Positions 1,961 to 25,858 of a stretch of DNA of 31,257 bases are shown here, piece after piece. Each line of letters starts with the position of its first letter. Position 1 is the stretch's first letter. The translations under genes and the position numbers were made by a program. Below the pieces are notes generated by a model, which was not told where the DNA came from, did no database searches, and was given only the letters and a program-made list of their open reading frames with translations. The DNA comes from Orycteropus afer (taxonomy: Eukaryota). The DNA is taken from positions 1,101,242-1,132,498 of the forward strand of contig NW_006922148.1 in the NCBI RefSeq assembly GCF_000298275.1, written 5' to 3'.

Positions 1961-4784
1961 CCAATATTTGTCCTTATGTGATTGACTTGTTTCACTCAGC
2001 ATCATGTTCTCCAAGTTCATCCATGTTATTTGGTGGTTAATAGATTCCGCATTATTCTTTAGTGTTGCATAGTATTCCATTTTGTGTATGTACCATAGTT
2101 TGGTTATCCATTCTTTTATTGATGGGCACTTAGGCTGTTTACTTCTCTTTGCTATTGTGAATAGTGCTGTGATGACCATGGGTGTGCATATATCTATTTT
2201 TGTCCTGGTTTTTACTTCTTTAGAGCATATACCTAGTACTGGGATTGCTGGATCAAATGGTATATCTAATTCCAACTTTTTAAGGAATTGCCACACTGAT
2301 TTCCACAATGGTTGTATCATTTCACAGTCCCAGCAGCAGTGTATGAGAGTTCCAGTCTCTCCACATCCTTGCCAATGTGTTATTTTCTGCCTTAAATTTT
2401 GCTATTAGCGCTGTGGTAATATGGTATCTCTTTGTTTAGATTTGCCTCTCTCTAATGGCTATCGATCATGAACATTGCTTCATGTGTTTATTGGCTACCT
2501 GAATATCTTCTTTGGTAAAGTGTCTGTTCATGTCTTCCATCCATTTTTTAATTGATTGTTTATATTTTTGATTGAAGTGTTGGAGTTTTCTATAAATTCT
2601 AGAGATAAGGCCCTTGTAAGATATGTCATTTCCAAATATTTTTTCTGAATCTGTAGGTTTTTTTTTTTTTTTTTACTCTTTTGGAGAAGTCTTTTGGTGC
2701 AAGCAGAAACTCAATTTTTCGAAGGTCCCAGTCATCTAGTTTATCTTCTGCTGTTTAGGCATTTTGGGTTATGCTTGATAGTCTATTTATGTCATAAATC
2801 ACGGCCCTTAAGTTTGGCCTTATTTTTTCTTTGATGAACTTTATAGTTCTAGGTTTCACATTTAAGTCTTTGATCCATCTGGAGTTAATTTTTGTGTATG
2901 GTGTGAGGTATGATTCTTGTTTCATTTTTCTGCAAATGGATATCCAGTTTTGCCAGCAACATTTACTAAAGAGACTATCTCTTGTCCATTTAATGGATTT
3001 TGGCCCTTTATCAATGATCAGCTGACCATAGGTGGATGAATCTATTGGTGAGTTCTAATTCTGTTCCATTGGTTTGTGTGTCTATAGTTGTATCAATACC
3101 AGGCTGTTTTGACTACTGTGGCTGTATAGTAGGTTATGAGATCTGGGAGTATGAGATCTCCTACTTTGTTCTTCTTCTTCAGCAGTACTCTGCTTATGCA
3201 AGGTCTCTTTCCTTGGTTTTCTCACGTCCTTAAAGAATGTTGCTGGAATCTGGATAAGGATTGCATTGAATGTATGGGTTCCTTTGGGTAGAATTGACAT
3301 TTTCACAAGGTTCAATTTCCCTATCCATGAGCATAGTTTGTTCTTCAGTTTATATACATCTGTTACAGTTTCTTGAAGTAGTGTTTTATAGTTTTCCTTG
3401 TTAGGTCTTTTGTGTCATTGGTAAGATTTACTCCCAAATGTTTTATCCTTTTGGTAGCTATTGCAAATGGTTTTGATTTCCTTATTTCCTTTTCAGAGAC
3501 TTCTTTGCTGGTGTAGAGCAAGATCTTGTATAATGTCACTATACTAAATCTTTCAATTAGTTCCAGTAGTTTGCTTGCTGAGTCTCTTGGGTTTTCTATG
3601 TATAGAGGATCAAATCATCTGCAAATAAAGTTTTACTTCTTTCTTACCAATCTAGGTGCCTTTAATTTCTGTTTCTTGCCTTATTGCCCTGGCTAGGACT
3701 TCAAGTACAGTGTTGAATAGAAGTGGTAATAGAAGGTATCCTTGTCTGGTTCGTGGTTGTAAGGGAAATAGTTTCAGTTTCTCTCCATTGAGAATAATGT
3801 TAGCTGTTGGTTTTGTATATATGCTCTTTATTATGATGAGGAATTTCCCTTCTATTCTTATTTTTTTGCAAGTTTTTATCAGCAGTGGGTGTAAGATTTT
3901 ATCAAATGCCTTTTCTGTATCTATTGATATGATCGTGTATATCTTTTCCTTTATTTTACTATGTGGTGGATTACAGTGATTGTTTTTCTGATGTTAAACC
4001 ATCCTTGCATACCTGGTATGAATTCCACTTGACTCTGATTTATTATTTTTTGATATGTTGTGGAAGTCTGTTGGCTAGGATTTTATTGAAGATTTTTGTA
4101 TCTATATTCATAAGGGATATTGGTCTATTGTTTTCCTTTTCAGTGGTGTCTTTACCTGCTTTTGGTATCAGGATTATGCTTGCATCGTAAAATGAATTTG
4201 GGAGGATTTCATCCTTTTCTATGCTCTGGAATAGTTTTAGAAGGATCAGTGTCAGCTTTTCCCTGAATGTTTGGAAGAATTCTCTGGTGAAACCGTCTGG
4301 GCCAGGCCTTTTTTTGTTGGTAATATTTTTATTACCTGTTTAATTCCTTCATATGTTATGGGTCTCTTAAAAATTTTCTACCTCAGTCTGTGTTAGTTTA
4401 GGTAAGTTGTATGTTTCTAGAAATCTCTGTATCCTCTTGATGGTATCTCACATGAATCTTAGGCTTTCTTCATTTTGTTTCAATCTTTTTTCTGATTGAT
4501 ACCTTAACAAAGTAGTATTGAGGTATTTGTCTTCAATCTCACTAATTCTGTCTTCCATTGATTTGATTCTGCTCCTTTACCTATTCCATGGGTTATGTAT
4601 TTCTGAAATCTTAGTATTAATCTGTGGGATTTCTATTTGTTGATTTTGTATCATTTCTAATTTTTCAATTATTTTGTCAGTTTGTTCTTGTATTGTTTCC
4701 TTAATTGCTCTAGAGCTTTTTTCTGTTTTCCTTAATTTTGTCAGTGTTTTCCTTGATCTGTCTCCCAATTTATTGAAGGTACCT

Positions 4785-4850
4785 AAATCTAAATCTAAAT
4801 ATAATCTAAATCTAAATCTAAATACAAATACAAATATGAATATAACTCTT
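4785..4850. repeat. (CTAAAT)n-like microsatellite inside L1-a, between the ORF1 start and the 5'UTR
   Basis: 'cctaaatctaaatctaaatataatctaaatctaaatctaaatacaaatacaaatatgaata'. Confidence 0.9.
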
Positions 4851-5379
4851 TTGAATTCCTTATCAGGCGGTTCCTATGCTGCTTCTTCCTTGGAGAAGTT
4901 TCCTGTTCCTGTCTCTATCCTGTTCCATTATTTGTACTACTTAATCTTGCTTCTTTCTGTGGACTGGAATGGTCACTTGTCTCTGAGACATTGTGATGTT
5001 ATTGTATGTGTATTTAATTGTTGTTTGTATGTTGGTGTGATTTGCCCAAGATTTTGTTTTTTCTTTATTTTGTTTTGATATATCTGAATGAGCAGGGTAC
5101 TGTGCTCCTCTGTTCACTACTTGGCAGCATTTAGGCTCTCACCACCTGTCTCCTGGGGGGTTTGATAGAGAATGAGAGTGTGTGCACAGATCTCTGTTAG
5201 CTGTTCGTGAAGAGCAGTTGAGGGTGAGTATGGGTGGTACTGACCACCAGCTGCCATTGGTAATTTGTTTCAGAAACAAGTGGTGGCCTTCCATCAGTGA
5301 ATGGGGCTGCACTAGGTGTGGGTATGGTCGGGTTGTGTGGATACAGTTGCTGTCTCCCACTCCATTTTACAAATAGAAA

Positions 5380-5800
5380 ATTTAAAAAACCACCAAAAAA
5401 ATTAAAATAAGAGAACAAAAACACAAACCACATAAAGAACCAGTAACAGTCCAAGAAAAAAACAAAAGGTTATAATTGATAAGAAAAATTGTAAAAATAC
5501 ATAAAAAAGTGAGATGAAAGATATAGAGGAAAAAACCCTTACAATATCTGGGTAGGGAGTAATGAGGGAAAAGAGCAAAAGTTAATGAATATTAATGAGA
5601 AAACTGTAGAGTGAAAAACAAGGGATAGGAAGAACCAAGAGAAAAGAAAGAAAAAAGAAGGGAACCAGCGAAAGGGAAGAGAGAGGGATAAAACAAAAAC
5701 AGAAACAAAAAAACATCAAAGGGAAAGAGAAAAATAAATAAAAAGAAAGGATGGAAGAAGAATAAAAGAATAATTTGAGAACATGCAAGAAGAAAACTGG
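5380..5800. repeat. Homopurine (A/G-rich) low-complexity tract, about 420 bp, in the L1-a 5'UTR; paralogous to 12660-13080
   Basis: On the plus strand the tract is almost exclusively A and G with occasional C ('aaaaccaccaaaaaaattaaaataagagaacaaaaacacaaacc...gggaagagagagggataaaacaaaaacag'). On the L1 sense strand it is C/T-rich. Confidence 0.85.
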
Positions 5801-6473
5801 GGCAGCGGAGCAGGGCACCCAGTTCTGTAAAGACACACAGACTGGGTTGGAATTGCTGCTGGTTCTGAATGTGGGTGGAGCCAGGAGATGGTCACATCTC
5901 AGTTCACCACGAGGGTGTAGGGTATAAGAGTAATGGAAATAACATACTTTTGAGTCTTTAGCCCCTAGTACAGTTGCAAATGCTGTGCTTGGCAAGTGCA
6001 TCCTATTCTTATGTTGCTGCCCTGATCAGAACACCCTTGCAGATACTAACAGTTGCCATGCCGCTTGCAAGTATCAAAATGGCTGTGCCCTCAGGACAGC
6101 TGGCAGTCCACAACTTTGTCTCCTCCTTTGCTGTTTTCCTTTCTAGTTGTTAGCTACCAGTGCAATTGTCCATGTAGTCTTTGGCCAGCAGAGTTTGTTC
6201 TCAGGTTGCTTCCTGTATGGGAACACTACTTGTAAATATTCAAATTGGCTATGCTGTCAAAACAACCTCCATTCTGCAGCTCTGTTTGTTTTCATTCAGG
6301 TTTACTGACTAGTTAGTATTTAATCTACTTCTGTATTCTTCCCTTCAAAGCTCATTTCCATGATTATCTTCTGTGTCTGTTGCAGTTGGTTTCTCATTTC
6401 TTTGTTGCAGAGGGTCTGTGTAGCTTGTCTGCCTATTCTGCCATCTTGCTGGAAGTCTCCTCTGGTTGTGATT

Positions 6474-6760
6474 TTAAGTTGCATCTCTTTTTTGGTTAAT
6501 GGCTAATGACATTATCTTTCTATATGCTTGTTGGTAATTTTTGAATATCCTCTTTGGTGAAATGTTTACCAAAGTTTTGTGCCCATATTTTGATTGGGTT
6601 GTTTGCCTTTTTGTTCTTAGGTTGTAGTGTTTTTCCAGCTTCTTGGAAAAGTTTAACTGGTTGTAGACCAAAAGGAGCAAGGGTCAAGGTTTTAGCCTGG
6701 CTAAGGAATTGTTTGTTAAAAGATGTTTGATCCAAGAAGAATGCCTTTGTCAGCATGTCC
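6474..6760 (-). mobile_element. Isolated L1 ORF2 C-terminal fragment
   Basis: Minus ORFs translate to '[25 protein letters not shown]' followed by 'RKIMSLAINQKRDAT'. This matches the L1 ORF2 stretch NNPIKKWAKD-NRHFSKEDI...SSLAIREMQIKTT with one frameshift. Confidence 0.7.
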
Positions 6761-7890
6761 CAAGAGATGAGAAAATAGAAATGATAATGTTAAGAAGAAT
6801 TGTAATTTAACAACCTCCTTATAACTTTTTGTCATGTACCCCCTTGTGCTTGTGAGTACATAGTCCTTTGGTTACTCCACCTGATAAAAGCTGCATTCCC
6901 TTCTTGCACTTGGGAACACTGTAGTACCCTACCTGGGTCTATTGTGCCTCCAGATTTGTGATTCTCTAGACTTTCAGTAAAACTCTTTGCTTTAATTTTT
7001 AATGAAGTGTAAGACTGGAGATTTGCTGTGACAACATATTAGATCCTTGTCAGATATATGGTTCCCCAAAAGACCCATGGGGGGAAGCTGTGCCAACAGA
7101 TCTGACATGGCTTCTTGCATTGTTGCTTCTCAGATTGTTGCTTCATTTCATGGTAGCAAGGTTACATGAGGTTCCCATGTAGAAGGGGCTCCCTTGATTG
7201 CCATCTCTGCCATGACCTGTGTAAGGGGCATACTCATTGGGTGAATATCCTGATCACCATAAAGCCATTCCATCCTGGCTTGAATAAGCAGCATATTAGC
7301 TGCTGCTTCTGGAGTGTTCCAGGTGGTATTTAGAGGGTGAGAGGTACAGTTTCCCTTGTCAGGGTAAACAAACCTGACTGCAGATTTTATCCATTTCACC
7401 AGGCTGTCTGTCCCCTCCAGGTTAATCTGCTATGTAAATGGAACTTGGCTCATCATTTGTGCCTGTTCCCTAGTGAGTTGTGGGTCTTGCATCAACCCAG
7501 ACGTACTTTTCCATTCTGTAGAATTAAAAACTAAAGACACTATCTTTAAAGTCACTCACACAATCCATTTTAATAAAGATTCCTCAGGAAGCTGACAATA
7601 CCCATCTATAAACTGAAACAATACAATTTTTTCTTTCTGGGTAGGTCCTGAGACTACTAGTGGTCGTAACTCGGATTGGACCGGATTTGGCCTTGGTTCA
7701 GTGCTGCAAGGTGCTCCTACTTTATTTTCCCTGCCATTGCTGCTGTTAATAATAATAGGAACCAAGGAATTGTAAATCTCATTCTTTGCTTGTCACTCTG
7801 TATTTCCATATGCATGAAACTAGCCAATTCCTCAGGAGTTAGATCCACCACTCCTAAATCCCATGGATAGCTGTTGTCTTGGGTTACTGA

Positions 7891-8080
7891 GGGAGCTCTG
7901 GTGGCATAGTGCCTAAAGCTTTTGACTGCTAACCAGAAAAAAGTCTGGTTAAAACCCACCAGCAACTCCTCGGAAGGAAGGTTGGGCAATCTACTTCCAT
8001 AGTGATACTGCCTCAGAAACCCAAGGAGGGGTCACTATGAGTTGGATCCAATCGACAGCAGTGAGTTTGTTTTTTTGGGG
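7891..8080 (+). mobile_element. AfroSINE (T-rich-tail type) flanked by a 10 bp target-site duplication
   Basis: 'gggagctctggtggcatagtgcctaaagcttttgactgctaaccag...gggtcactatgagttggatccaatcgacagcagtgagtttgtttttttgggg'. The TSD 'gggttactga' lies at 7881-7890 and again immediately after the T-run at about 8080-8090. Confidence 0.9.
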
Positions 8081-8099
8081 GGTTACTGAATGCAATACA

Positions 8100-8800
8100 A
8101 CAGCTACTTCAAGCCATGGGTGTTTTTCTTCCCATCCAGAAACCAAAAGTTTCTTATTCTCCTGTTTATCCCCTTTTCCCAAAACCACATATTTCAGTGA
8201 ATCTGGGCTGTTGCAGCAAACCCTACTGTTCTGACACCAACTGCTTGAATAATTTCTTTTGGAAGGGTCAGCCCAAGACTGGTCCCTATGAGGCAGAAGT
8301 TAAAGATGTCATGAAAGTCCTACTTTTCCAAACTGCTGTACCACTCCATTATCTCTCGTATTGACTCCTGCTTCTCCCCTCAGTATTCCTTGCTGTCTTA
8401 GGGTTCCTTATTTCGATCTAACATCTCACGGAACTCAAAAGCTGCCAAGGAAATGGCTCATGTGGTGGTGGAGGCTAGGAGGCTGGCAGGTCCCAAAACC
8501 ATGGATAGGCCTGGATGAATCTCCTCACTCCTGTGGTTGCAGAGCCTGGTGAATCCAAATTGGCAGGTCAGATGACTGCTGTTTCAAGTCCAGGGGAGAG
8601 ATGATGGTGAACCAAATGTAGGATCTGGAGGAAGAGAGTGAACATATCCAGAGCATTCACATATATATCCTCAAGGAAGCTAATGGTGGTGACTTGAGTC
8701 ATACCCTCCAGCAAAGGGAGACTCAAGATACATCCCACCCTAACCAGGCATAGAGATTAGGATTTACAATATATCACAAAATGGAGGACTATGGCTTGAA
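8100..8800. mobile_element. Probable non-autonomous LTR (MaLR/MLT1-like) block; the family is uncertain
   Basis: The sequence style is typical of MaLR LTRs ('ggctaggaggctggcaggtcccaaaaccatggataggcctggatgaatctcctcactcctgtggttgcagagcctgg...catcccaccctaaccaggcatag'). It has no coding potential and lies between a SINE and L1-b. Confidence 0.3.
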
Positions 8801-9057
8801 GGGTCATATTATGCAATTCACTGCATTGCATGTGTCTTTGTTGAGTTTCTTTCTGGTTATTCAGTTCTTCATTGAAAATGGTATGTTAAACTCTCCTACT
8901 ATAATTGTGGAGTTGTCTATTTCTCTTTTCAATTCTATTAAAGTTTGATTTATGGATTTTAGTGCTCTTTTTTTGGGGGTTTAGATATTTACTGTGGGTA
9001 TGTATTCTTGTTCGATTGACCTTTTAATCATTATATGCTGGCCTTCCTTTTCTCTTA

Positions 9058-9240
9058 GCTCTGGTGGCGTACTGCTTAAGGCATTTGACTGCTAACCAGA
9101 AGGCTGGCGGTTCAAACCCACCAGCCACTCCGTGGAAGGAAGATGGGCAATCTGCTTCCATAAAGATTTACTGCCTGGGAAACTGGAAGGGGGTCGCTAT
9201 GAGTTGGAATTGACTCAATGGCACTGAGGTTTTTTTTTTT
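9058..9240 (+). mobile_element. AfroSINE (T-rich-tail type) inserted in the L1-b ORF2 endonuclease region, with a target-site duplication
   Basis: 'ctctggtggcgtactgcttaaggcatttgactgctaaccagaaggctggcggttcaaaccc...gggtcgctatgagttggaattgactcaatggcactgaggttttttttttt'. The TSD is 'ccttttctctta' (about 9045-9057 and 9243-9255). Confidence 0.9.
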
Positions 9241-10054
9241 CCCCTTTTCTCTTACAGTAGTTTTTGTCTTAAAATCTATTTTATCACTGACTCTTTTTTG
9301 ATTGCCATTTGCTTGATGTATTTTTTCCAACCTTTGATTTTTAGTCTGTTTTTTGTCTTTGTGTCTAAGGTGTGTCTCTTGTTGACAGTATATTGATGAG
9401 TTACATTTTTTAGGCCATTTTGCAATACTCTTGTCTCTTGATTGACACATTTAATCCATTTACATTAAGTGTAATTATTGACAAATATGAATTTATTGCT
9501 GTTATTTTGTTATGTGCTTTTTTGTGGTTCTGCTCATTTCTTTGTTCCGTATAGTTTTCTCTGCTGAACTCATTTTGTTTTTGAATTTTCTTATCATATC
9601 CTTCATTGTTATTGTTTTAGTATTTACTAAATACTTATAACACTCTTTTATTTTGATGACAAAGTTTATTAATTAATTTTATTTAAGTTACCCTGTCATT
9701 TATTATTTCCTTTCCAAGTTGTAAACAGTCCACTCTCTCTTAAATCGTTTTGAGTTCCTCTCCAGTTGGAAGTTCTGTGCCTAACTGTTTATTTCTGTTT
9801 TTGCTTTGTATTTGTCCTCATTTACAAATTGATGTCTTTTGTTCTCTGTTTTCAGTCTTGTAGGTTTATTTTACTTTGGATACTTTTATAGGTGAGTTGA
9901 GTTCTAGTTGGTGTTATTTTGTGTGTTAATCACAGAAATCACAGATAACTGTTTGCTATTGTTGGTTCTCTATCTTAAGGACTCCCTTAAATTTAAATTA
10001 ATTCTCTGTGTATCTAGAAATGTCTTAATTTTCCCATTATATTTTAGGGACAGT

Positions 10055-10829
10055 TTTTTTAAAAAATTGTGATTTGGGTGAAAGTTTACAGAGCAAGTTC
10101 ACATACACTTTGTCTCACTCATGTCATTGATTGTGATTTCCCACAGTGCAACAGCTCTCTTCCCACTTCCTCCCCATAGTTAACCTCTTCCTTGGGTCCT
10201 TCCCTCTCATGCATTCCAGCTCCCCGAACTGTCTCCCCGTGCATACACAACTCTTCTATTCTTGCGTGATTGATCTCTCCAAGGAGTGTATCTATCTAAT
10301 GTAAATGTTCAGCTCATATGCCTGTCTTTTGTTTGGCTGGAAGCCACAGGCATGGGTTCAGTTCCTGACCTGAAGGACAACTGGGGCCATAGTCTCAGTG
10401 GTTCCATCAGGCTCTATCAGACCAGCAAACCTGGTGTCCACCCCCCCTTTTTTTTTAACGATGTTGAGTTTTGTTTTACACTGTTCTCCCACTCTATCCA
10501 GGATCTCCTACATAGATCCCCCTCTGAGTGGTAGCTGGGCACCATCTAGTTCTTCTGGTCTCATAGTCATCTAGGCTGAGGATCACATGGTGTACCAGTC
10601 GCTTGGATTAATTGTTTCCATGAATCTTTGGTTTTCGTCATTCTTCTTTGCTCTGGACGAGGAGAGACCCGTCATTGTATCTAGATGGTTGCTTGCAAGC
10701 TTTTAAGATCCCAGTCACTACTCGCCAAAGTAGGATGTGGAACAATAGTTTTGTATAGTATGTTATGCCAATTAAGCTTGATGTCCCCTCTGACTGTGGT
10801 CCTGAGCCCACAGGTCCAAGTCCTCACTC
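10055..10829 (-). mobile_element. Copy c2 of the ~0.8 kb T-tailed composite retroposon, inserted into the L1-b inter-ORF spacer with a ~14-15 bp TSD
   Basis: The left end is 'tttttttaaaaaattgtgatttgggtgaaagtttacagagcaag' and the right end is '...ctgtggtcctgagcccacaggtccaagtcctcactc'. The TSD is 'tttagggacagtttt' before and 'tttagggacaatttt' after. An internal T-run at 10436-10450 divides the element into two units. Confidence 0.65.
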
Positions 10830-11561
10830 TTTAGGGACAATTTTACTGGGTATATAATTCTTGGTTGGTAATTTTTTTTCTTTCAGGATTTTAGATATGT
10901 CATCCCACTGCCTTCTTGGCCTGAATGGTTTCTGCTAAGAAATCACAGCATAATAATAGTGGTTGGCCTTTGTAGGTAATTTTTTGTTTTTACCATGCTG
11001 CTTTCTGTATTGTTTCTTTGTCTCTGGTTTTGGAAAGTTTGATTGTGATATCTTTTAGTGATTTAGTTTTTTGGGGTTGATCCTGTTTGGGGTTTGTTGA
11101 ATTAAATGCGTATCTTTTCTTCTTTCATCATATTGGGTAAATTCTCTTCCAACAAATCTTGGGACAATTTTCTCTGTGGTTTTATTTGCCTCTTCCTGTT
11201 CTGGATTTCTGGTCATATGTAATTATTCCTCTTGATGATGTTCTACATAAATCTAAGGTTTTCTTTTTTTCTTCTTTTCTCTGATTGTTTCCTTAACAAA
11301 GTAGTATGGAGAGATTTGTTTTCTGTCTTCCATTGATTCAGTTTAACACCTATGCTCTTTCACTGTGTTATCTATTTCTGAAATCTTAGTATTAATCTTC
11401 TGGATTTGTATTTGCTGTTTTTTTATGTTTTCTAATTTTTCTTTTATCTTTCAGTTTTTTGTTGTATTGTTTTCCTGAAGTGTTCTGTTGTTTTGTCTGT
11501 GTCTTCCTTAATTTTTTCAATGTTTTCCTTTATCTGTCTCTAAATCCATTGAAGGAACCTG

Positions 11562-12044
11562 TGGTAGTTAAGGTTATGTGTGAACTTGGCTAGACCATAA
11601 TTCTGAAGATGCAGTGTATTAACATCTATGATGAGATAAGCTGTGAGGAGTCAATCAGTTGAAAGGGGAATTTCCTCAGGGCTGTGAACTGCTTCCAATA
11701 TATATATGGACATCCTGGAAGATACTCTGGCTTTCTGCTGGATATTGGTCTTACGTCTATCTCATCATCTCTCATTCTTGGGAACTGACCAGTGGCCTGC
11801 CGTATTGCTTAATGATCTTGGGATTGTTGCTTTCTAGCATGTGAGCCAATAATCTACCATTTTACCTGCCAGTCTTTGATTCATCATCTGCTGAAGCCAG
11901 CAGCTTGCTATATTGCCTATTGATCTTAGATTCATCAGTCCCTGTAGGTGCATGATGGAAAAAGCTTCCATCCTGACATTTGCACCACAAACTTGGGAAT
12001 TGCTAGCCTCTATGAATGTGTGAGTCATTTCTCTGAGATAAATT

Positions 12045-12075
<31 letters not shown>
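11562..12075. mobile_element. Unclassified ~510 bp insertion in L1-b between the ORF1 start and the 5'UTR. It ends in a (CT)n run
   Basis: L1-a/L1-b collinearity breaks after '...ccattgaaggaacc' and resumes at 'aagcttcactggttttgtttctg'. The inserted sequence ('tgtggtagttaaggttatgtgtgaacttggctagaccataattctgaagatgcagtg...cctctatgaatgtgtgagtcatttctctgagataaatttctctccctctctctctc') has no counterpart at the same position in L1-a, which carries a (CTAAAT)n microsatellite there. Confidence 0.4.
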
Positions 12076-12077
<2 letters not shown>

Positions 12078-12659
12078 AAGCTTCACTGGTTTTGTTTCTG
12101 TATACAGCCCAACCTAAGACAGTACCCACATATACTTCTTTTGTTTTCTTTAACAGGTAGTTCCAGTGCCTTTTCTTTCTCGGGAGGCTTTCTGGCTCTG
12201 TAGTGTAGTGTCTTGTTTATACTACTTTATCTTGTTTCTCTATATGAACTGGAATTGTCGGTTGTGTCCCAGGTATGGTAGTGTCATTGTATTTCTATTT
12301 AATTGGTGATTGAATGTTGGTGTGAGTCACCTGAGGTATTTTTTTTTCTTTCTTTTTGCTTTGTTTTGTTTTGAAATATCCTAGAAAGTGGGGCTGGTGT
12401 GCTACTTGGTTCATTAGTTTGGCATCACATAGGCATTCACCACCCACTTCTTGTGGGTGTGATAGGGTATGAAAATGTGTCCACAATTCTCTGCTCATTG
12501 TTTGTGTAGAGCAGTTGAAGGTAGGTTGCCTGGTATTGGCCTCTGTCTGTCCTTGAATAGTTGGTGAAAAAGTAGTTGGTGGCTCTTGTCTGGTTGTTGG
12601 GGCTGTAGTTGGTACAGATGTGGTTGAGTTGTGTGGGCATGGTTACTCCTGCTGGGTTG

Positions 12660-13080
12660 CAGAAAAAAAAAATACAACACACACACACACACACACACAC
12701 ACAAAGAGGACAAGAAATACAAATGGTATAACAAAAAGGAAATAATAAATAAAAGAAAAAGAGACTAAAAACAACAGAAAAAAACAAACATCAACAATAA
12801 AAAAAGAAAAACAATAAATAAAAAGAACGAGAAGGAGGAAAAGTGGGAAAAAAAGAGAAAATGTCAGCAGTGAAGAAAAAAGCAAAGAAAGAAAGAGAAT
12901 GGCAAAGTAAAATAGCAAAATGCAAAAAGGAAAACTAAGGTTGGAGAGAATTAAAAAGAAGACAAAAAAAAAGGAACAAGAAAAAGGAAAAAAAAGTTAG
13001 TAACCAGAAGATAGAAAGAAAAAGAAAGGAGAAAGAGAGAGAGACAGAGAGAGACAGAGAAAGAGAAGGAGAGAAAACTG
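12660..13080. repeat. Homopurine (A/G-rich) tract of about 420 bp in the L1-b 5'UTR, with an embedded (CA)12
   Basis: 'gcagaaaaaaaaaatacaacacacacacacacacacacacacaaagaggacaag...gagaaagagagagagacagagagagacagagaaagagaaggagag'. The plus strand is over 95% purine. Confidence 0.85.
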
Positions 13081-13995
13081 GGTGGCTTGGCACCTGGGCA
13101 GTGTTCCTGCTGGCCAAGTCGGTGGCTCAGAGCAGGAGACCTGGTTCTGGAAGGAGTTACTGGCAGCTCAAAATGTAGCTGGATGTAGGGTGCCTACTCT
13201 TAGAAAGAATTCCTGCTGGTCCAAAAGACAACTGGATTCAGGGTGCTTGGTCCTAGAAGTTCCCTGCTGGCCCAGAAAGTATCTGAGGGAAAGGTTCCTT
13301 AACCCAGAAGAAGTTCCTGCCAGACCAAAAGGTGGCTGGTAGCTGGATGCCTGGCCCCAGAAGAAGTTCCTGCCCTCCCAAAAGGCAGCTGGGTTTAGGT
13401 TGCCTGGTCTCAGAAGAAATTTTTTCCATCCTAAAAGGTGGCTGATTATATATCTCCTGGTCACAGAAAAAGTTCCTACTGACCCGATGGTGGTTGGGTA
13501 TAGAATGCTTTGTCCCAGAAGAAGTTCCTGCCAACCTAAAAGGCAAGCTGAGAATAGGGCACTTAGTCCCAGAACTAATTGCTCCCTACCAGCATGGCAG
13601 CTGGAGCTGGGCACCTGCTTCCAGGTGGAGTTCCCAGAAGATGTCTGGGGCAGCTTACCTGGATTTGGAAAAAGTTTCTGCCAGGCTAAAGGGCACCTGG
13701 GGCAAGGTACCTGGTTCCAGAAGGAGTTCATATGGGCCCAAAAAGCACCTGGGGACAAAATAGTCCCAGAAAAGTTCCTGCCATCCCCAAAGCCCATTGG
13801 GGCTAGGTCACCTGATCCCATAAAATGTTCTGCCATCCCAAAAGATAGCTAGATGGTAGGATACTTGGTCCCAGAAGTTCCTGCCAGCCCATTAGGCATC
13901 TGTGAGCCAGGCGCCTGGTCCCAGAACTAGTTCGTGCTTACCCAGCAGGCAGGTGAGGGCAGGGTGCCTGATCACAAATGGAGTTCCTGCTGGCC
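13080..13995 (-). repeat. Tandem array of about 17 degenerate ~52-53 bp monomers that makes up the 5'-terminal part of the L1-b 5'UTR. It is a monomeric L1 promoter-type array
   Basis: A unit of the form 'cctggtcccagaagaagttcctgccNNcccaaaaggcagctgggNtNaggNtg' repeats head to tail. Examples: 13192-13243 'ctactcttagaaagaattcctgctggtccaaaagacaactggattcagggtg', and 13345-13397 'cctggccccagaagaagttcctgccctcccaaaaggcagctgggtttaggttg'. Confidence 0.8.
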
Positions 13996-14359
13996 CAGTT
14001 TTTGGATTTCTTTTGCTTCAAGATTTTTGAGGTTATTGGATGTGTAAGTTTCTATCTTTTGTTGTGTTTGGGAAAAGTTCTTGGTGGTCCTTTCTCTGTT
14101 TCTTCTTCTTCTGGGAGCCCCAATAATACATACATTATTCAGTTTGATGATGTCCCACATATCTCTTAGGCTTTGTTCATTTTTCTTTACTCATTTTCCT
14201 TTTTACTGCTTGGTCTGAACAGTCTCAGTTGCTTTGTCTTCGAGTTCATGGATTCTTCTGCCAGCTCAAATCTACTGTTGAGCCCTTCCGGCAAATTGTT
14301 CATATATGTTATTGAACTTTTCAGTTCTAGTATTTCTATTTGTTTGTTTGTTTTCTTTC
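13996..14359 (-). mobile_element. L1-c: ORF1 segment (first ~55 residues of the RNA-recognition domain plus the coiled coil) truncated on its 3' side where the L1-b 5' terminus abuts it
   Basis: The minus ORF 13972-14160 translates to 'MWDIIKLNNVCIIGAPRRRRNRERTTKNFSQ...', an LWD-IKR-N-IIG-PE start like the L1 ORF1 RNA-recognition domain. Region 14170-14359 is paralogous to the ORF1 coiled coil. Confidence 0.7.
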
Positions 14360-15189
14360 TTTTTTTATTTTTTAAATTGTGATTTGGGTGAAAATTTACA
14401 GAGCAAATTCACTTGCCATCCAGCAGTTCACATATACTTTTGTCTCATGACATTGACTACGATTTACCACAATGCAACAGCTCCTCTCTCACTTCCTCTG
14501 CATAATTACCTCTTCCCTACATCCATCCCTCCATGCCCTCCTGCCCCCAGAGCTGTCTCCCTGTGCATAAATAGCCCTTCTTTCTCCCATGATTGTTCTC
14601 TCCAAGGAGTGTATCTGCCTCAGGTAAATGTTCAATTCATATGCCTGTCTTTTGCTTGGCTGGAAGCCACAGGTGTGGGTTCAATTCCAGACCTGAAGGG
14701 CAACTAGGGGCCATAGTCTCAGTAGTTCCATCAGGCTATATCAGACCAGTAAACCTGGTCCCCACCCCCCTTTTCCTTTTTTTTTTTCCCAAACGATTTT
14801 CAGTTTTGTTCCACATTGTTCTCCTCTCTATCCAGGATCTCCTACATAGATCCCCTTCCGAGTGGTTGACAGTGGTAGCTGGGCACCATCTAGTTCTTCT
14901 GGTCTTATAGTCGTATAGGCTGCAGATTGCATGTTGTATGAGTCACTAGGACTAATTGTTTCCATGAATCTTTGGTTTTCTTCATTCTTCTTTGCTCTGG
15001 ACGAGGAGAGACCCATCATTGCATCCAGATGGCTGCTTGCAAGCTTTTAAGATCCCAGTTGCCACTCTCCAAAGTAGGAGGTGGAACGTTTTGTGTAGTG
15101 TGTTATGCTGATTGAGCTTGATGTCCCCTGTGACTGTGGTCCCGAACCCACAGGTTCAACTACTTGGTCTCTCTGGGTAGGTGGCTGTG
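14360..15189 (-). mobile_element. Copy c3 of the ~0.8 kb T-tailed composite retroposon, the longest copy, inserted in L1-c ORF1
   Basis: 'ttttttatttttaaattgtgatttgggtgaaaatttacagagcaaattcac...ggttcaactacttggtctctctgggtaggtggctgtg'. The flanks 'tatttgtttgtttt' and 'tatttgtttatttt' look like a TSD. Confidence 0.65.
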
Positions 15190-15650
15190 TATTTGTTTAT
15201 TTTAAAATTTCTTTTTATTGAAATTCCTGTTTTGTTCTTATATCATTTTTCTCATTTCCTTTAGTTCTTTTCCCACATTTTCATTCAGTGTTTTGAGCAT
15301 GCTTCATATTGTTGCTTCAAAACCTATGTTGAGTGGTTCTGTTATCTGTTCTTCCTCAGGGAGAGTTTCAGTGCCCTGATTTTTTATTTTTGCATGGATT
15401 ATCCTTTCCTGCCTCTTTATATGTTTTGTGTTTGTCTTTTGGAATTGGAACTTTAAGCTCTTTCACTGTGATAATTCTGAAAATTAAATTTTTCCTCTTT
15501 TTTAGAGTTTGTTCTTCTTCCTCTTCATTGTTGCAAGCAGGGTGCCTGGTCCCAGAACTAGTTGGTGCCTACCCAGAAGGCAGGTAGGGCCAGGGTGCCT
15601 GATCCTAGATGGAGTTCCCATAGGCCCAGTTTTTGGATTACTTTTTAAAC
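15190..15650 (-). mobile_element. L1-c 5' portion: ORF1 N-terminus and proximal 5'UTR, ending in two promoter monomers and the family 5' terminus
   Basis: Region 15541-15640 'cagggtgcctggtcccagaactagttggtgcctacccagaaggcaggtagggccagggtgcctgatcctagatggagttcccataggcccagtttttggatta' is paralogous to the last two monomers and terminus of L1-b (13900-13995). Confidence 0.7.
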
Positions 15651-15840
15651 TTTATTATCTGGTAGCGTAGTGCCTAAGGCACTTGACTGGTAACCAGAAG
15701 GCTGGGGGTTCAAACCCACCAACCACTCCTTGGAAGGAAGATTGGCCAATCTACTTCCATAGTGATACTGCTTCGTAAACCCAAGGAGGGGTCGCTATGA
15801 GTTGGGGCTGACTCGACGGCACATAACAACAACAACATTA
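15651..15840 (+). mobile_element. AfroSINE ((AAC)n-tail type) inserted exactly at the L1-c 5' terminus, with a 10 bp TSD
   Basis: The TSD 'ctttttaaac' lies at 15641-15650 and again at 15841-15850. The body reads 'tctggtagcgtagtgcctaaggcacttgactggtaaccagaaggctgggggttcaaaccc...gggtcgctatgagttggggctgactcgacggcacataacaacaacaaca'. Confidence 0.9.
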
Positions 15841-15899
15841 CTTTTTAAACTTATTGAAGATTGTAGTTCTCTGTTTCTATGCCAGATTTCCCTTTTAGG

Positions 15900-17286
15900 T
15901 ACACTTGCCATTGTTTCTTCCCTATTTGTCTCATTTCACTCAGGCACCAGCTGTCACTGTTTCGTCTCTAGGTTTGCTGAGTAGGGTTACTGGCTGGTTA
16001 CTTCAGCACTGAACTCCTTGGTTTGTAGAATTTGGGGTGGTCACTTTCCCACCAGATATTAGGCATGCTGACTATATCACTTTGGTACAAGACTACTTCC
16101 TTAATGTTAGTGCCCATAATGCCCCTTTAGCACCTGCTTCCTCTTTATGGATTACCAGCTGTCTCTGATAGCTCATCACAGATCTTCCTTGACCTTACAG
16201 CTCTGGCACTAGGCCCTTCTGCCCAGGAGCTCTCACGCAAACATACCACAGACTCTTCTTCCAGGTTGGTACTGCAGCTCCCTCAGAGTCCTACCCTGGA
16301 AATGGAAACTATTGCCAATTTACCACATGTTCTCACTGTTCATGAGCTCTAGACTGTGCTGTTCTCACCTTATTTCTTTTTCCTAGGACTCACAGGGACT
16401 CCAGTTTATTCTATGCTCATTGAACTGCTTTGCCCAGGTCTATCTGTCCAGGTGTTTTGTCCTGCATTATGTCCCTTATTCCTCTCCATCATGGGCCTTA
16501 CCACAGAGGGCTCCCTGTAGTTTCACTTGTAAGGTTGATCTGGTTTTAACAAATTCCCTTAATTTCTGCTTATCTGCAAATGTCCTAATTTCACCATCAT
16601 ATTTGAGGGACAGTTTTGCTGGGTATATAATTCTTGGTTGGAAATTTTTCTGTTTCAGGGTTTTATATATACCATCCCATTGCCTTCTCACCTGCATGGT
16701 ATCTGCTGATTAATCAGAGCTTTGTCTTATTGGTTGCCCTTTGTAGGTATCTTTTTGTTTTTCCTGTGCCACTTTCAGCATTCTGTCTTTGTCTTTTGTT
16801 TTGGTGAGTTTGATGGTGATGTGTCTTGGTGATTTTCTTTTGGTGTGTATCCTGTTTGGGGTTCGTTGCACTTCCTGAATGGATATGTTCTCATCTTTCA
16901 TCATATCAGGAAAATTGTCTTCCAACAAATCTTTGACAATTTTCTCAGTGGTGTTATTTTTCTCTTCCTGTTCTGGAATTCCAACTACATGTAGGTTGTT
17001 CCTTTTGATGGTGTCCCACATGAATCTTAGGCTTTCTTCATTTTGTTTTTATCTTTTTTTTTCTGATTTATCCCTTTCCAAAGAGATAGTCAGGTATTTG
17101 CCTTCAATCTCATTAATTCCATCTTCCATTAATTTGATTCTACTCCTTTGCCCTTTCAATGTGTTACTACCTATTTCTGAAAATTTAGTATTAATCATCT
17201 GGATCTCTATCTGTAGATTTTGTATCATTTCTAGTTTTTCATTTATTTTATCATTTTGTTATTGTATTTTCTTTTCCACATTGCAG
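15900..17286 (-). mobile_element. L1-g: inter-ORF spacer plus a nearly intact ORF1 (C-terminal domain, RNA-recognition domain, coiled coil) of a young L1. It is truncated on the left and interrupted on the right by a retroposon fragment
   Basis: The minus ORF 16710-17021 translates to 'MWDTIKRNNLHVVGIPEQEEKNNTTEKIVKDLLEDNFPDMMKDENISIQEVQRTPNRIHTKRKSPRHITIKLTKTKDKDRMLKVAQEKQKDTYKGQPIRQSSD', the ORF1 RNA-recognition domain. The minus ORF 16476-16697 translates to 'RRQWDGIYKTLKQKNFQPRIIYPAKLSLKYDGEIRTFADKQKLREFVKTRSTLQ', the ORF1 C-terminal domain. Confidence 0.85.
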
Positions 17287-17625
17287 TTCATATGCATTTT
17301 GTCGCATGACATTGACTGTGATTTCCCACAATGTAACAGTTACCTTCCCACTTCCTCCCCATCGTTACCTCTTCCCTCTCATGCACTCCTGCCCCTGACT
17401 GTGCATACACTGCTCTTCTGTTCTCTCATGATTGATTGCTCCAAGGACTGTATCTACCAGATGTAAATGTTCAGCCCATATGCTGGTCTTTTATTTGTCT
17501 GGAAGCCACAGGAGTAGAACAGTATTTTTGTATAGTATGTTATACCACTTGAGCTTGGATGTTCCTTGCAACCATGATTTTGAGCCTGCAAGCCCAGTCA
17601 CTTATTATCTGGATGGTTGGCTGTG
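17287..17625 (-). mobile_element. Copy c5 of the 0.8 kb retroposon family, a fragment with a central deletion
   Basis: 'ttcatatgcattttgtcgcatgacattgactgtgatttcccacaatgtaacag...ggaagccacaggagtag' then jumps to 'aacagtatttttgtatagtatgttataccacttgagcttgg...'. The two parts match the left and right ends of copy c2. Confidence 0.55.
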
Positions 17626-17682
17626 GTTAAGAAGTTAACATAACTTCACTCCCTCTTAGCTCTATTATATATGTGGACATTC

Positions 17683-17868
17683 TTATTGTTGTTTTTATGT
17701 GACATGGAGTCAGACCCAACTCATAGCGACCCCTCCTTGGGTTTCCGGGGCAGTATCACTATGGAAGTAGATTGCCCAACCTTCCTTCCGAGGAGTGGCT
17801 GGTGAGTTTGAACCATCTGCCTCTGGTTAGCAGTCAAGTGCCTTAGACACTATGCTACTAGAGCTCCC
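17683..17868 (-). mobile_element. AfroSINE in minus orientation with a TSD
   Basis: The tail in reverse complement is 'ttattgttgtttttatgtgacatggagtcagacccaactcatagcgacccctcc', and the body ends '...agcagtcaagtgccttagacactatgctactagagctccc'. The TSD is 'ggacattctta' (17672-17682 and 17872-17882). Confidence 0.9.
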
Positions 17869-19437: not shown

Positions 19438-19638
19438 GAGATAAGGTGCTTGGGTGGCTTAGTAAGTAAGGCATTTGGCTACTAACAAGAAGGTCAATGG
19501 TTCAAACCTAACAGCTGCTCTGTGGGCAGAAGATGAGGGAATCTACTTCCTTAAAGATTTACAGCCTTAGAAACACAATGCGGGTTGCTGTGAGTTGGAA
19601 TGGACTCAATGGCAGTGGGTTTTGTTTTTTTTAAGGAG
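19438..19638 (+). mobile_element. AfroSINE (T-rich-tail type, diverged 5' head), 137 bp downstream of the exon donor
   Basis: 'gataaggtgcttgggtggcttagtaagtaaggcatttggctactaacaagaaggtcaatggttcaaacc...gggttgctgtgagttggaatggactcaatggcagtgggttttgttttttttaagg'. Confidence 0.85.
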
Positions 19639-20013
19639 TATGGAGAGTATAAGGGGAAATAAGCTTTTGAGAAAACTAGACATTCCTATCTGTAAAATTC
19701 TCAGACACAAGAGCTGATCAGAGGTAGCATTTTACTGCTGGTTAAGTATAAGCGTAGATCTTCTATATCAAGAGGATAATAATATGCCTGAGGAATATGG
19801 ATGGTCTTGATCATCAGTTAATGCCAAACTTTAACCTTTTTAATGGCTAACTACTTTTTTTTTTTCTGTAGAGCAATTTATTATTTGAGTGCTAATAAAA
19901 ATAATATAGCAAACTGTGCCATTGTAATAACTTTATAAATGTGGAACTTTTCTAATTAGAGTTATTACTTAAATGAAAGGGTAGTAGCATGTAATCATGT
20001 TTCTATAAAACAT

Positions 20014-20290
20014 TTTTTAAAAAATTTTTTATTGTGATTTGGGTGAAAGTTTACAGAGCAAATTCATTTTCCATACAGCAATTTACATACACTTTGTCTC
20101 ATAACATTGATTGTAGTTTCCCACAGTGCAAAAACTTTCTTTTCACTTCCTCCCCATAGTTACCTGTTCCCTGTGTCCTTCCTTCCCATTCACTTCCCCT
20201 GAGCTGTCTCCCTGTGCATATATAGCCCTTCTATTCTCCCATAATTGATCTCTCCAAGGGGTCTATCTACCTAATGTAAATGTTCAGCAT
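20014..20290 (-). mobile_element. Copy c6 of the 0.8 kb retroposon family: the 3' unit only, 5'-truncated in element sense
   Basis: 'tttttaaaaaattttttattgtgatttgggtgaaagtttacagagcaaattcattttccatacagc...ccaaggggtctatctacctaatgtaaatgttcagcat' ends abruptly where the full copies continue. Confidence 0.6.
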
Positions 20291-20690: not shown

Positions 20691-20892
20691 TAGCTCTGGT
20701 GGGAGCTCTGGTAGCATAGTGGCTAAGGCACTTGACTGCTAACCAGACGGCTGGCTGTTCAAACCCACTAGCCACTCCTCGGAAGGAAGGTTGGGCAATC
20801 CTACTTCCGTAGTGATACTGCCTCGGAAACCCAAGGAGGGGTCGCTATGAGTCAGGTCTGACTCGACGGCACATAACAACAACACAACAACA
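20691..20892 (+). mobile_element. AfroSINE ((AAC)n-tail type), the first of a head-to-tail tandem pair
   Basis: 'agctctggtgggagctctggtagcatagtggctaaggcacttgactgctaaccagacggctggctgttcaaaccc...gggtcgctatgagtcaggtctgactcgacggcacataacaacaacacaacaacat'. Confidence 0.9.
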
Positions 20893-21095
20893 TAGCTCTG
20901 GTAGCATAGTCCCTAAGGCATTTGACTGCTAACTAGAAGGTTGGTGGCTCAAACCCACCAGCCACTCTACAGAAGGAAGACTGGGCAAACTACTTCTGTA
21001 AAGATTGACAGCCTCAGAAACCCAAAGGGGGTTTTTGCTATGAGTTGGAATCAATTTGATGGCAGTGAGTTTTTTTTTCTTTTCTTTTTTTTAAT
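20893..21095 (+). mobile_element. AfroSINE (T-rich-tail type), the second of the tandem pair
   Basis: 'agctctggtagcatagtccctaaggcatttgactgctaactagaaggttggtggctcaaaccc...gtttttgctatgagttggaatcaatttgatggcagtgagtttttttttcttttc'. Confidence 0.9.
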
Positions 21096-21215: not shown

Positions 21216-21370
21216 AAAGATCATAGCAGCCCCTTCTTGAGTTTCCGAGATGGTAGCTCTACGGAAGTAGATTGCCTAGTCTTCCTTGTGAGAAGTGGGT
21301 GGTGTGTTTGAACCACCAGCCTTCTGGTTAGCAGTCAAATGCCTTAGGCATTATGCCACCTGAGCTCTGA
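21216..21370 (-). mobile_element. AfroSINE in minus orientation, tail-truncated
   Basis: 'catagcagccccttcttgagtttccgagatggtagctctacggaagtagattgcctagtcttcc...ggtgtgtttgaaccaccagccttctggttagcagtcaaatgccttaggcattatgccacctgagctc'. Confidence 0.9.
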
Positions 21371-23200: not shown

Positions 23201-24458
23201 TGCCTCCTCAAAGTACTTGTTATTGTTTGGTGCTGTTAAGTCACCTCCAACTCATAGCAACCCTGTGTACAACAGAATGAAACATTGCCCAGTCCTACAC
23301 ATCCTCACGATCCTTGCTGTGTTTGAGCCCATTGTTGCAGCCACTGAGTCAATCCATCTAGTTGAGGGTCTTCCTCATCTTCACTGCCCCTCTCTACTTT
23401 ACCAAGCATGATATCCTTCTCCAGGAACAGTTCCCTTCTGACGACATGACCATAGTAGGTGAGACATTGTTTGGCCATTCTCACTTCTGAGGAGCATCTG
23501 GCTGCACTTGTGCTGGGACAGATTTATTGGTTCTTTTGAAGTCCATGGTATTTTCAGTATTCTTTGCCAGTACCACAATTCAAAGGCATCAACTCTTCTT
23601 CAGTCTTCCTTATTCATTGCCCAGCTTTCACATAATAACGTGAGCTTGGGTTAGTCACACTTCAGTCTTCAAAGTAACATCTTTGTTCCTCAGTACTTAA
23701 AGGAGTTTTTTTTTGAAGCACATTTGCCCAGTGCAGTATGATGTCTGATTTCCTGACTGCTACTTCCATGAGTGTTGATTGTGGATACAAGTAAAATAAA
23801 ATCCCTAACAACTTTAATCTGTTCTCCATTTATCGCGATGTTGCTTATTGGTTCAGTTGTGAGGATTTTTATTTTCTGTATGTTGAGGTTTAATCCATAC
23901 TGAAGTAGTCTTTGATATGCATCAGTAAGTACTTCAAGTCCTCTTCACTTTCAGCAAATGGGTTTTATCATCGGTGTATTGCAGGTCGTTAATGATTCTT
24001 CCTCGAATCCTGATGCTACGTTTTTCTCTTTTAATTGGTCTTCTTAGATTATTTGCTTAATATGCAGATTGAGTAAGTATGGTGAAATGATACAACCCTG
24101 ATGCACACCCTTTCTGATTTTAAACATGCAGTATCTTCTTATTCTATTTGAACAAGGTCTTTGTACAGATTCCACATGAGCACAACTAAGTATGCTCATT
24201 CTTCTCAATGTTATCCATAATTTGTTTTGATCCACACAGTTAAATGCCTTTGCATAGCCAATAAAAAGTAAGTAAACATCTTTCTGGTATTCTTTGCTTT
24301 CATCCAAGATCCATCTGACGTCAGCAATGATATCCCTAGTTCCACGTCCTCTTCTGAATCTAGCTTGAATTTTTAGAAATTCCCGTCAGTATACTGCTGC
24401 AACAATTTTTAAATTATTTTCAGCAAAATTTTATTTGCATGTGGCATTAATGATATAG

Positions 24459-24635
24459 GAGTTCTGGTGGTGTAATTCCTAAGGCATTTGACTGCTAAAG
24501 AGAAGGCTGGTGGTTCAAACCCACCAGCCACTCCTCGGAAGGAAGGTTGGGCACTCTACTTCCATAGTGATACTGCCTCGGAAACCCAAGGAGGGGTTGC
24601 TATGAGTCAGATATGACTTGACAGCAGTGTTAGTA
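24459..24635 (+). mobile_element. AfroSINE inserted in the minus-strand RTE, with a 13 bp TSD
   Basis: The TSD is 'attaatgatatag' (24446-24458 and 24636-24648). The body reads 'gagttctggtggtgtaattcctaaggcatttgactgctaaagagaaggctggtggttcaaaccc...ggggttgctatgagtcagatatgacttgacagcagtg'. Confidence 0.9.
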
Positions 24636-25149: not shown

Positions 25150-25858
25150 TTTTTTTTTTTCTTTCAATTTTTGTGATTTGGATGAAAGTTTACAGAGTAA
25201 ATTCATTTCCCATACAGCAGCTCATGTACACTTTGTCTCATGACATTGACTAATTTCCCACAATGCAACAGCTCCCCTCTCACTTCCTCCCCATAGTTAC
25301 CTCTTCCCTGTGTCCTTCCTTCCCATGCACTCCTGCCCCTCAAGCTGTGTCCTTGTTCCTACACAGCCCTTCTATTCTTCCATGATTGATCTCTCCAAGG
25401 AGTGTATCTACCTAATGTCAATGTTCACCTCATATGCCTGTCTTTTGTTTGGCTGGAAGCCACAGGAAGGGGTTCAATTCCAGACCTGAAGGGCAGCTGG
25501 GGGACATAATCTCAGGGTTTCCACCAACTCTATCAGACCAGAAAACCAGGTCCTTTTTATTTTAAATGATGTTGAGTTTTGGTTCTACATTGTTCTCCCA
25601 CTCTATCCAGGATCTCCTACATAGATCCCCCTCTGAGTATTTGACGATGGTAGGAGGGCACCATCTAGTTCTTCTGGTCTCACAGTCATATAGGCTGAGG
25701 ATTGCATGACATATCAGAAGCTTGGACTAATTGTTTCCTTGCATCTTTGGTTTTCTTCATTCTTCTTTGCTATGGGCAAGGAGAGATCTATCATTGCATC
25801 TAGATGGCTGCTTGCAAGCTTTTAAGATCCCAGTTGCTGTTCTCCAAAGTAGGATGTG
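25150..25858 (-). mobile_element. Copy c4 of the 0.8 kb T-tailed composite retroposon, inserted in the minus-strand RTE with a 9 bp TSD
   Basis: The TSD is 'tactgtgtc' (25141-25149 and 25859-25867). The left end is a T-run followed by 'ttgtgatttggatgaaagtttacagagtaaattc'. The right end is 5'-truncated at '...ccaaagtaggatgtg'. Confidence 0.7.

Follow-up and report, generated by a model that had tools for sequence, protein, structure and literature searches.

In this study, a tandem array of short repeats was analysed in a 31,257-nt stretch of Orycteropus afer DNA (contig NW_006922148.1, positions 1,101,242 to 1,132,498), which is referred to below as the window. The array lies at 13086–14008, has a period of 52–53 bp, and consists of 17 full head-to-tail units and one partial unit (~17.5 copies). 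It is probably the upstream-most preserved part of the 5' untranslated region (5'UTR) of an old, decayed LINE-1 (L1) on the minus strand, inherited with that element and likely a promoter by analogy. The repeat structure of the array, its strand, its position within the element, its collinearity with a relative and its origin before insertion can all be observed in the window. The array lies in an L1 leader whether its outer edge is a shared terminus, the edge of an internal module or part of a direct repeat.

An initial annotation had placed about 17 monomers of 52–53 bp, head to tail, at 13080–13995. The array proved real by Tandem Repeats Finder (TRF), repeat search, self-identity at lag 53 and segmentation, with limits of 13086–14008 instead; the unit length, the copy number and the consensus agreed with the segmentation (17 full units and a partial one; consensus CCTGGTCCCAGAAGAAGTTCCTGCCAGCCCAAAAGGCAGCTGGGTATAGGGTG). 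With default scoring, TRF returned the best-preserved core only (13303–13418, period 53, 2.2 copies, 79% matches). The repeat search found 13 in-register copies of a 37-nt core at a spacing of 48–54 nt or about twice that. Self-identity over 13080–14010 peaked at lag 53 (0.441; shuffle maximum 0.327, n = 500), with harmonics at lags 106, 157–159, and 210. Wrap-around alignment resolved 13086–13966 into 17 full units, followed by a 31-nt partial unit and 11–17 non-unit nucleotides. A hidden Markov model (HMM) of the unit matched every unit, with E values of 5e-15 to 1e-2 for units 2–17; the unit at 13086, closest to ORF1, had a marginal partial match only (13101–13128, E 0.63). Elsewhere in the window the model matched only 15545–15618.

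13086–13966, minus strand: 17 full monomers of 52–53 bp (wrap-around segmentation, unit HMM, lag-53 autocorrelation).
13967–14014, minus strand: 5'-most partial unit (31 nt) and 11–17 nt of non-unit sequence (sense AAAAGAAATCCAAAAACTGGGCC...), adjoining the interrupted ORF1 of a neighbouring L1.
~14008–14014, minus strand: non-repeat end of the array-bearing L1.

The identity of the units to the consensus was 0.58–0.91 (mean 0.73), and the mean pairwise identity was 0.58, with no higher-order pattern. The monomers had been described as more diverged toward ORF1; this was not borne out, as no divergence gradient was found along the array (Spearman rho −0.08, p 0.77) and identity was steady toward both ends. 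The best-conserved block of the unit on the sense strand was CAGGAAC, which we take, as a lead only, to resemble an ETS core. Unit positions 37–38 and 52–53 were a mixture of TG, CA, CG and TA, which is a footprint of decayed CpG (2 of 53 positions). The GC content of the array was 51.9%, against 39% for the whole window. Most mammalian L1 5'UTRs have a GC content of 51.9–61.6%, a range that includes the array, and are rich in GC and CpG relative to the body of the element (PMC5381506).

The long open reading frames (ORFs) of 150–222 aa that the initial annotation had called spurious were both present over the array, the 222-aa one being the longer. Neither matched Pfam, and a protein search with the 222-aa ORF, the only one searched, found no relatives. 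On the minus strand, all frames of the unit consensus are free of stop triplets, so long ORFs across the array arise automatically. The lesson for annotation is that these ORFs of 150–222 aa are artefacts of a stop-free repeat.

The L1 coding sequence of the window was mapped by tblastn with human ORF1p and ORF2p sequences, which were used for mapping only. All matches were on the minus strand.

4447 to 1964, minus strand: match to ORF2 aa 424–1266 (tblastn).
9505 to 8831, minus strand: match to ORF2 aa 1–165 (tblastn).
11161 to 10823, minus strand: match to ORF1 (tblastn).
14256 to 14113, minus strand: match to ORF1 aa 117–164 (tblastn).
17141 to 16506, minus strand: match to ORF1 aa 117–321 (tblastn; Pfam Transposase_22 and Tnp_22_dsRBD).

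Because every coding match was on the minus strand, the array was read from right to left. The array as the start of a plus-strand L1 was considered and ruled out, since the coding matches are all minus and the T-rich stretch that follows the array on the right is ORF1 in antisense. Placement of the array in an L1 5' leader, as first annotated, holds for a minus-strand reading of the element, with ORF1 and ORF2 both downstream. In sense order, the element would run from its non-repeat end (~14008–14014) through 17.5 units, a T/C-rich block and ~0.3–0.6 kb of unique leader into ORF1, and from there through a spacer of ~450 nt into ORF2. The low-complexity block and the unique leader form a non-repeat tether between the array and ORF1.

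12730–13085, minus strand: low-complexity block, T/C-rich on the sense strand, common to the L1 at 5396–5801 (~61–62% identity, 5801..5396 vs 13082..12700).
12130–12700, minus strand: unique 5'UTR and likely ORF1 N-terminal region (69.7% identity over 419 nt to 4840–5245).
12110 to 11560, minus strand: ~550-bp insert in the leader of the array-bearing L1.
10829–11560, resuming at 9960–10053 after a nested insertion, minus strand: ORF1 of the array-bearing L1 (tblastn; 75% identity to 16603–17268 and 4432–4784).
10054–10828, minus strand: nested 5'-truncated insertion of L1 3'UTR only, carrying an A-tail and flanked by the target-site duplication TTTAGGGACA.
8831–9960, minus strand: AT-rich ORF1–ORF2 spacer (~9510–9960, ~450 nt) and ORF2 N-terminus (9505 to 8831) of the array-bearing L1.

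The translation of 12130–12700 contained, by eye, the motif ...EKEKALELPVKE.., and no second copy of the 16 nt flanking the upstream edge of the array was found, the 3' end of the array-bearing L1 being outside the window. The insert at 11560–12110 ended with a (TC)n run at 12045–12077 and was without counterpart in the related L1 described below (4784–4840, the site of a (CTAAAT)n microsatellite). Between the pieces of ORF2 that end at aa 165 and begin at aa 1063, ~2.2 kb (6612–8831) had no ORF2 similarity; the flanking pieces may be one L1 with a replacement or two elements.

The array-bearing L1 was 70–75% identical to its relatives in the window. A second L1 (6465 to ~1400) was collinear with it through the low-complexity block, the leader and ORF1, in the pairs 4432–4784/11227–11560 (75%), 4840–5245/12130–12541 (69.7%, 419 nt), and 5396–5801/12700–13082. 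The homology of the two elements stopped exactly at the array boundary (5801 vs 13082). Beyond 5801, the related L1 carried an unrelated segment of 665 nt ending in CAAGATGGCAGAATAGG. No homology was found between the array and this segment, and the only unit-like match beside the low-complexity block of the related L1 had 2.9 bits and E 0.02. The related L1 is a clean nested insertion: it is flanked by a 13-nt target-site duplication (AAAATCACAACCA / AAAACAAAACCAA), and the ORF2 that it interrupts resumes at 1397. An internal deletion near 4440 joins its ORF1 at ~aa 160 to ORF2 at aa 424.

5802–6465, minus strand: non-repetitive 5' region of the related L1, in the position of the array, with the canonical start GAGGAGACTTCCAGCAAGATGGCAGAATAGG and a YY1 box at 6432–6448.

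The canonical mammalian L1 start is G2–6(A/C)G2AGNCAAGATGGCGGA with a YY1 site (PMC5381506). This terminus was present on the related L1 (6432–6465) and absent from the array end, which reads AAAAGAAATCCAAAAACTGGGCCAGCAGGAACTCCATTTG on the sense strand; no YY1 box (expected as ...CAAGATGGC... ~11–13 nt from the 5' end) was found at 13967–14014 or 15598–15645. In L1 5'UTR turnover, the upstream segment is replaced and the leader is retained (PMC5381506). Between the two relatives the upstream segment has thus been exchanged, in this known mode of turnover, and the YY1-start segment in the place of the array would represent a swap of promoter segments.

A second copy of the module was found beside a neighbouring L1. 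The alignment of 13910–14014 with 15541–15645 gave 85.7% identity over 105 nt (E 1.7e-28). The initial annotation had counted two monomers at 15541–15640; the second copy exists and has 1.9 units only.

15536–15645, minus strand: second module copy (1.9 units), consisting of ~9 nt of one unit, a full unit (15545–15597), a partial unit, and the shared non-unit end.
14009–15528, minus strand: ORF1 of the neighbour L1 (15528 to 15190 and 14346 to 14009, to ~aa 199), split by a 3'UTR insertion at 14347–15189.

The second module precedes the ATG of the neighbour ORF1 (15528) by 7 nt in the same orientation. It has no low-complexity block and stands directly before a different ORF1 type. The insertion at 14347–15189 is flanked by the duplication ATTTGTTT[GA]TTT, and the neighbour ORF1 is cut at ~aa 199 by the end of the large array. 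The composite neighbour ORF1 was collinear with human ORF1p aa 2–143 (score 64, against 39 ± 6 for shuffled sequences, 1/500 of which reached 64); the alignment of its N-terminal part alone was not significant. One short interspersed element (SINE) showed a 20-nt duplication, ATTACTTTTTAAACTT(T)ATT, spanning the edge of the second monomer copy.

The full unit of the second copy (15545–15597) shared 91% identity with the outermost full unit of the array (13914–13966) and 53–74% with the other 16. Because matching units are 91% alike and other units 53–74%, most of the unit divergence predates insertion, and therefore the array was inherited from the source element. The units would already have been well diverged in that source, with no growth of the array in place. 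The same comparison upholds the earlier view that the array is not a local microsatellite-like expansion. Both copies agree in their end and in the two units nearest to it, and the difference of 17.5 against 1.9 units falls on the ORF1 side (n = 2 copies). Their homology stops sharply at ...GGCCCAGTTTTTGGATT, and the flanks beyond are unrelated; an extended homology past the shared end, seen by eye, was rejected because 77/500 shuffles reached its score. Of the defined family 5' terminus proposed at first, the sharp shared end therefore stands; that it is the true 5' end is unproven, the region beyond it (15646–16476) being ambiguous. The module had also been called a family property and not a local duplication. 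This rests on two instances, which are 1.5 kb apart in one window and could be a direct repeat, so the family property is unproven.

The bearing of the shared end depends on the sequence that lies beyond it.

15646–16476, minus strand: region sense-upstream of the second module, ~620 nt plus an AfroSINE-like insert at 15658–15835 (GC 45.6%).

This region directly follows the ORF1 of another L1 (17268 to 16476). It may be the ORF1–ORF2 spacer of the L1 with ORF1 at 16476–17268, which would make the edge a second real 5' end. Alternatively, it may belong to the 5'UTR of the neighbour L1, and the edge would then be internal. The ORF1–ORF2 spacer of elephant and hyrax L1s is 423–719 nt long (PMC5381506), and a length of ~620 nt fits this range. 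Against a spacer, the GC content of 45.6% exceeds the reported spacer range, and no homology was found between 15646–16476 and the AT-rich spacer at 9510–9960 (29.5% GC). The two ORF1s beside these dissimilar regions are nevertheless 75% identical. A spacer would also leave the neighbour L1 a leader of 117 nt, far under the 906–3229 nt of mammalian L1 5'UTRs (PMC5381506). No homology was found between 15646–16476 and the 5' segment of the related L1. At 16474–16493 (minus strand), CATGATGGAGAGGAATAAGG fits the L1 start pattern of a YY1 box followed by GAATAGG. This pattern is common to the verified 6448 start and the human L1 start, was found elsewhere in the window only at 16474–16493 and in 0/300 shuffles, and was defined after both sites had been seen. 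After a frameshift, the same nucleotides encode MMERNKGHNAGQN where the ORF1 C-terminus (human NMERNNRYQPLQN; MERN..QN) is expected. A second canonical L1 start at 16493 is therefore ambiguous.

To judge from the monomers of rodent L1s and from the repeated motifs in elephant, hyrax, horse and opossum leaders (PMC5381506), the most likely role of the array was that of the internal RNA polymerase II promoter or a part of it; both its promoter activity and its transcription initiation site are putative. Repetition would multiply the binding sites of factors, and an ancestral content of ~2 CpG per unit would permit control by methylation. In mouse, two monomers are enough for promoter activity (PMC9022269).

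Several points weigh against the array as an inherited L1 promoter. The window holds one full array and one 1.9-unit copy only. Between the array and the remainder of the L1 lies the low-complexity block, so that their continuity rests on adjacency, orientation and one related element without an array. A YY1 box is found at nearly all non-rodent mammalian L1 starts (PMC5381506); since the array end has none, the copy may be a 5'-truncated one, or a longer leader may enclose the array. With an identity of 58% among them, the units are heterogeneous, whereas active mouse L1s have homogenised arrays. The CpG observed/expected ratio of the array is now 0.06, and the TpG+CpA excess is 1.20 in the array against 1.41–1.46 in neighbouring non-repeat leaders, which indicates an ancestral CpG island only weakly. 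No close L1 relatives were found in the protein collections, where the best matches were 56–58% identical, and scans for exact patterns in viral, metagenome and prokaryote collections yielded isolated chance matches only. The unit and end strings had no match in the paper texts searched.

For the shared end to be the true 5' terminus of both copies is somewhat unlikely. It is likewise doubtful, though conceivable, that an afrotherian L1 lineage without a YY1 start carried a rodent-like promoter of many 53-bp copies with a fixed transcription start of its own (sense ...AATCCAAAAACTGGGCC...), seen here at two independent 5' ends. If it did, the copy number would vary from 2 to >17, and monomeric L1 promoters would have originated convergently and independently outside rodents.

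The two module copies can also be arranged as parts of one canonical L1. This element would start at ~16500 with a YY1-type box, run through ~620 nt of leader (16476 to 15646) into the array and the low-complexity block, and from there through the second part of the leader to ORF1; 14009–15535 would have been inserted later. The two copies of 104–110 nt would then be a direct repeat made by the insertion of 14009–15535, an ORF1 fragment from a different L1 that itself carries a nested 3'UTR insert. Such a history is quite unlikely. Its A-T-B-T'-C layout with sharp homology edges resembles an insertion with target duplication, but a duplication of >100 nt is rare for L1-type insertions, and the start of the piece 7 nt before the ORF1 ATG would be chance. 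The piece ends 17 nt past AATAAC, followed by AAAAGAAA, and could be a prematurely polyadenylated L1 transcript; however, it has no clear poly-A tail. The fit of CATGATGGAGAGGAATAAGG at 16474–16493 to the L1 start pattern speaks for a start there, although the pattern was drawn up post hoc and the YY1-like string doubles as the expected ORF1 C-terminus MMERNKGHNAGQN and may be no start. The leader-like GC content of 15646–16476 (45.6%), its dissimilarity to the array-bearing L1's AT-rich spacer, with which no homology was seen, and the resulting 5'UTR of ~2.2 kb, which is inside the mammalian range (PMC5381506), are consistent with a single element. The divergence of T from T' (14%) is, if anything, low for separately aged insertions (nested 3'UTR inserts, ~8.5–10%).

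The composition and start-motif evidence for 15646–16476 would equally suit two L1 families, with the shared terminus as an artefact of truncation. The neighbour L1 would then be complete, with a 5'UTR from 16500 to 15529 and 1.9 units before its ATG, and the array-bearing L1, a relative, would have inserted into the neighbour ORF1, ending, whether truncated or complete, at the point homologous to 117 nt before the ATG. Each step would be a nested insertion of the ordinary kind found at other places in the window, and the 117-nt neighbour 5'UTR required by the initial annotation (906–3229 nt in mammals, PMC5381506) would be avoided. However, the neighbour must have inserted at most ~20 nt from the point where the ORF1 of another L1 ends, the ~620 nt of 15646–16476 match the elephant and hyrax spacer (423–719 nt, PMC5381506), and the start motif is ambiguous; we regard this arrangement as unlikely. 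It is highly unlikely that the array is foreign to the low-complexity and ORF1 part, as it would be if a 5'-truncated L1 of the YY1 family had landed in a non-L1 minisatellite or in an array that belonged to another L1. The two parts would then adjoin by accident, and the L1 in question may have had no use for the array. The related L1 without an array, the end of homology exactly at the array boundary, the unit-like match of only 2.9 bits (E 0.02) beside the related low-complexity block, and the second module before a different ORF1 type without such a block are in accord with a foreign array. On the other hand, the module was seen twice, and in each case it has the L1 sense orientation and directly precedes an L1 5' region; the unit HMM found no further copy in 31 kb; and replacement of the 5' segment above a retained leader is normal L1 evolution (PMC5381506).

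An inherited, repeat-built L1 leader can be compared with known systems. The monomers of the mouse L1 A, Tf, and Gf families are ~200 bp and those of rat ~600 bp, and recent mouse insertions have up to 7.5 monomers (PMC9022269, PMC5381506). As in mouse and rat, head-to-tail units are at the upstream end of the leader, a non-repeat tether precedes ORF1, the array end has no YY1-box start, and the copies are many (17.5 here). In contrast, the unit of 53 bp is ~4 times shorter, the units are heterogeneous (58% pairwise) whereas rodent units are homogenised, and both copies share one specific end whereas rodent first monomers are variably truncated. The host here is afrotherian, and the promoter role is putative.

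In the L1 5'UTRs of elephant, hyrax, horse and opossum, a motif of 70–100 bp is duplicated 2–3 times (three times in elephant; PMC5381506). These are likewise short tandem motifs in non-rodent 5'UTRs, Afrotheria included, and the long ORF1–ORF2 spacer and long 3'UTR are shared with elephant and hyrax L1s (PMC5381506). The present array has 17.5 units of 53 bp against 2–3 of 70–100 bp, a comparison by description only, and those L1s start with a YY1 box, which the array end lacks. T-rich low-complexity blocks are reported in dog, cow and armadillo L1 5'UTRs (PMC5381506). The 350–400-nt blocks at 12730–13085 and 5396–5801, T/C-rich on the sense strand and inside the leaders, are similar to these. 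Unlike in those hosts, among which PMC5381506 does not report Afrotheria, the low-complexity block here adjoins an array and is not itself the array.

Repeat-built L1 leaders are known from rodents, and the array is a modest addition to them. L1 families evade host repression by replacing the upstream promoter segment, and nearly all work on repeat-built L1 promoters has been done in mouse and rat. If the array was such a promoter, it would be a second, independent example of how these promoters arise and are swapped, found beside a YY1-start sister, and it would supply a defined unit for tests of factor binding and KZNF targeting. Its value is limited in that the copy is old and decayed, the instances are two, and repeat libraries may already contain the family.

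Other repeats were also recognised in the window. Six 5'-truncated L1 3'UTR copies were found on the minus strand (14347–15189, 10054–10828, 25150–25858, 20010–20290, 17270–17640, and 1–280). They end in ...CACCCAAATCACAA and an A-tail with variable 5' truncation (alignment of five). Target-site duplications were visible for two of the six, and three copies lie inside older L1 ORF1s. The recurrent ~0.8-kb segment had been a candidate for an alternative L1 5'UTR, which was ruled out by CACCCAAATCACAA with the A-tail, the variable 5' truncation and the target-site duplications. Because these 0.8-kb segments are insertions of 3'UTR only, several supposed L1 5' fragments merge into two elements. 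All nested L1s share one orientation, which may reflect a position of the window inside an intron of a gene on the plus strand.

About a dozen tRNA-derived SINE copies, 68–90% alike, carried the motif GGGTCGCTATGAGT, and several had (CAA)n tails. The copies with GGGTCGCTATGAGT are presumably AfroSINE; together with the ~450-nt AT-rich ORF1–ORF2 spacer and the long L1 3'UTR, they give the window an afrotherian character. Rfam gave a single match over the window, a tRNA-like SINE head at 1895–1962. The (CAA)n tail matches elements of the AFROSINE2 type (PMC6007223).

498–911, 1820–1963, 7890–8076, 9057–9240, 15658–15835, and 17686–17868: SINE copies.
19445–19632, 20700–21092, 21221–21367, 24458–24629, and 29957–30146: further SINE copies.

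At 25757–26627 (minus strand), two ORFs of 110 and 109 aa resembled, by eye, the endonuclease region of RTE/Bov-B elements (ITGDW..KVG..GKYG.G.RN); neither had a Pfam match at E ≤ 0.01. The segments 23217–24452 and 28287–29559 form an inverted pair of 1.2 kb with 71.5% identity, and further pieces related to this pair were found between 26017 and 31250.

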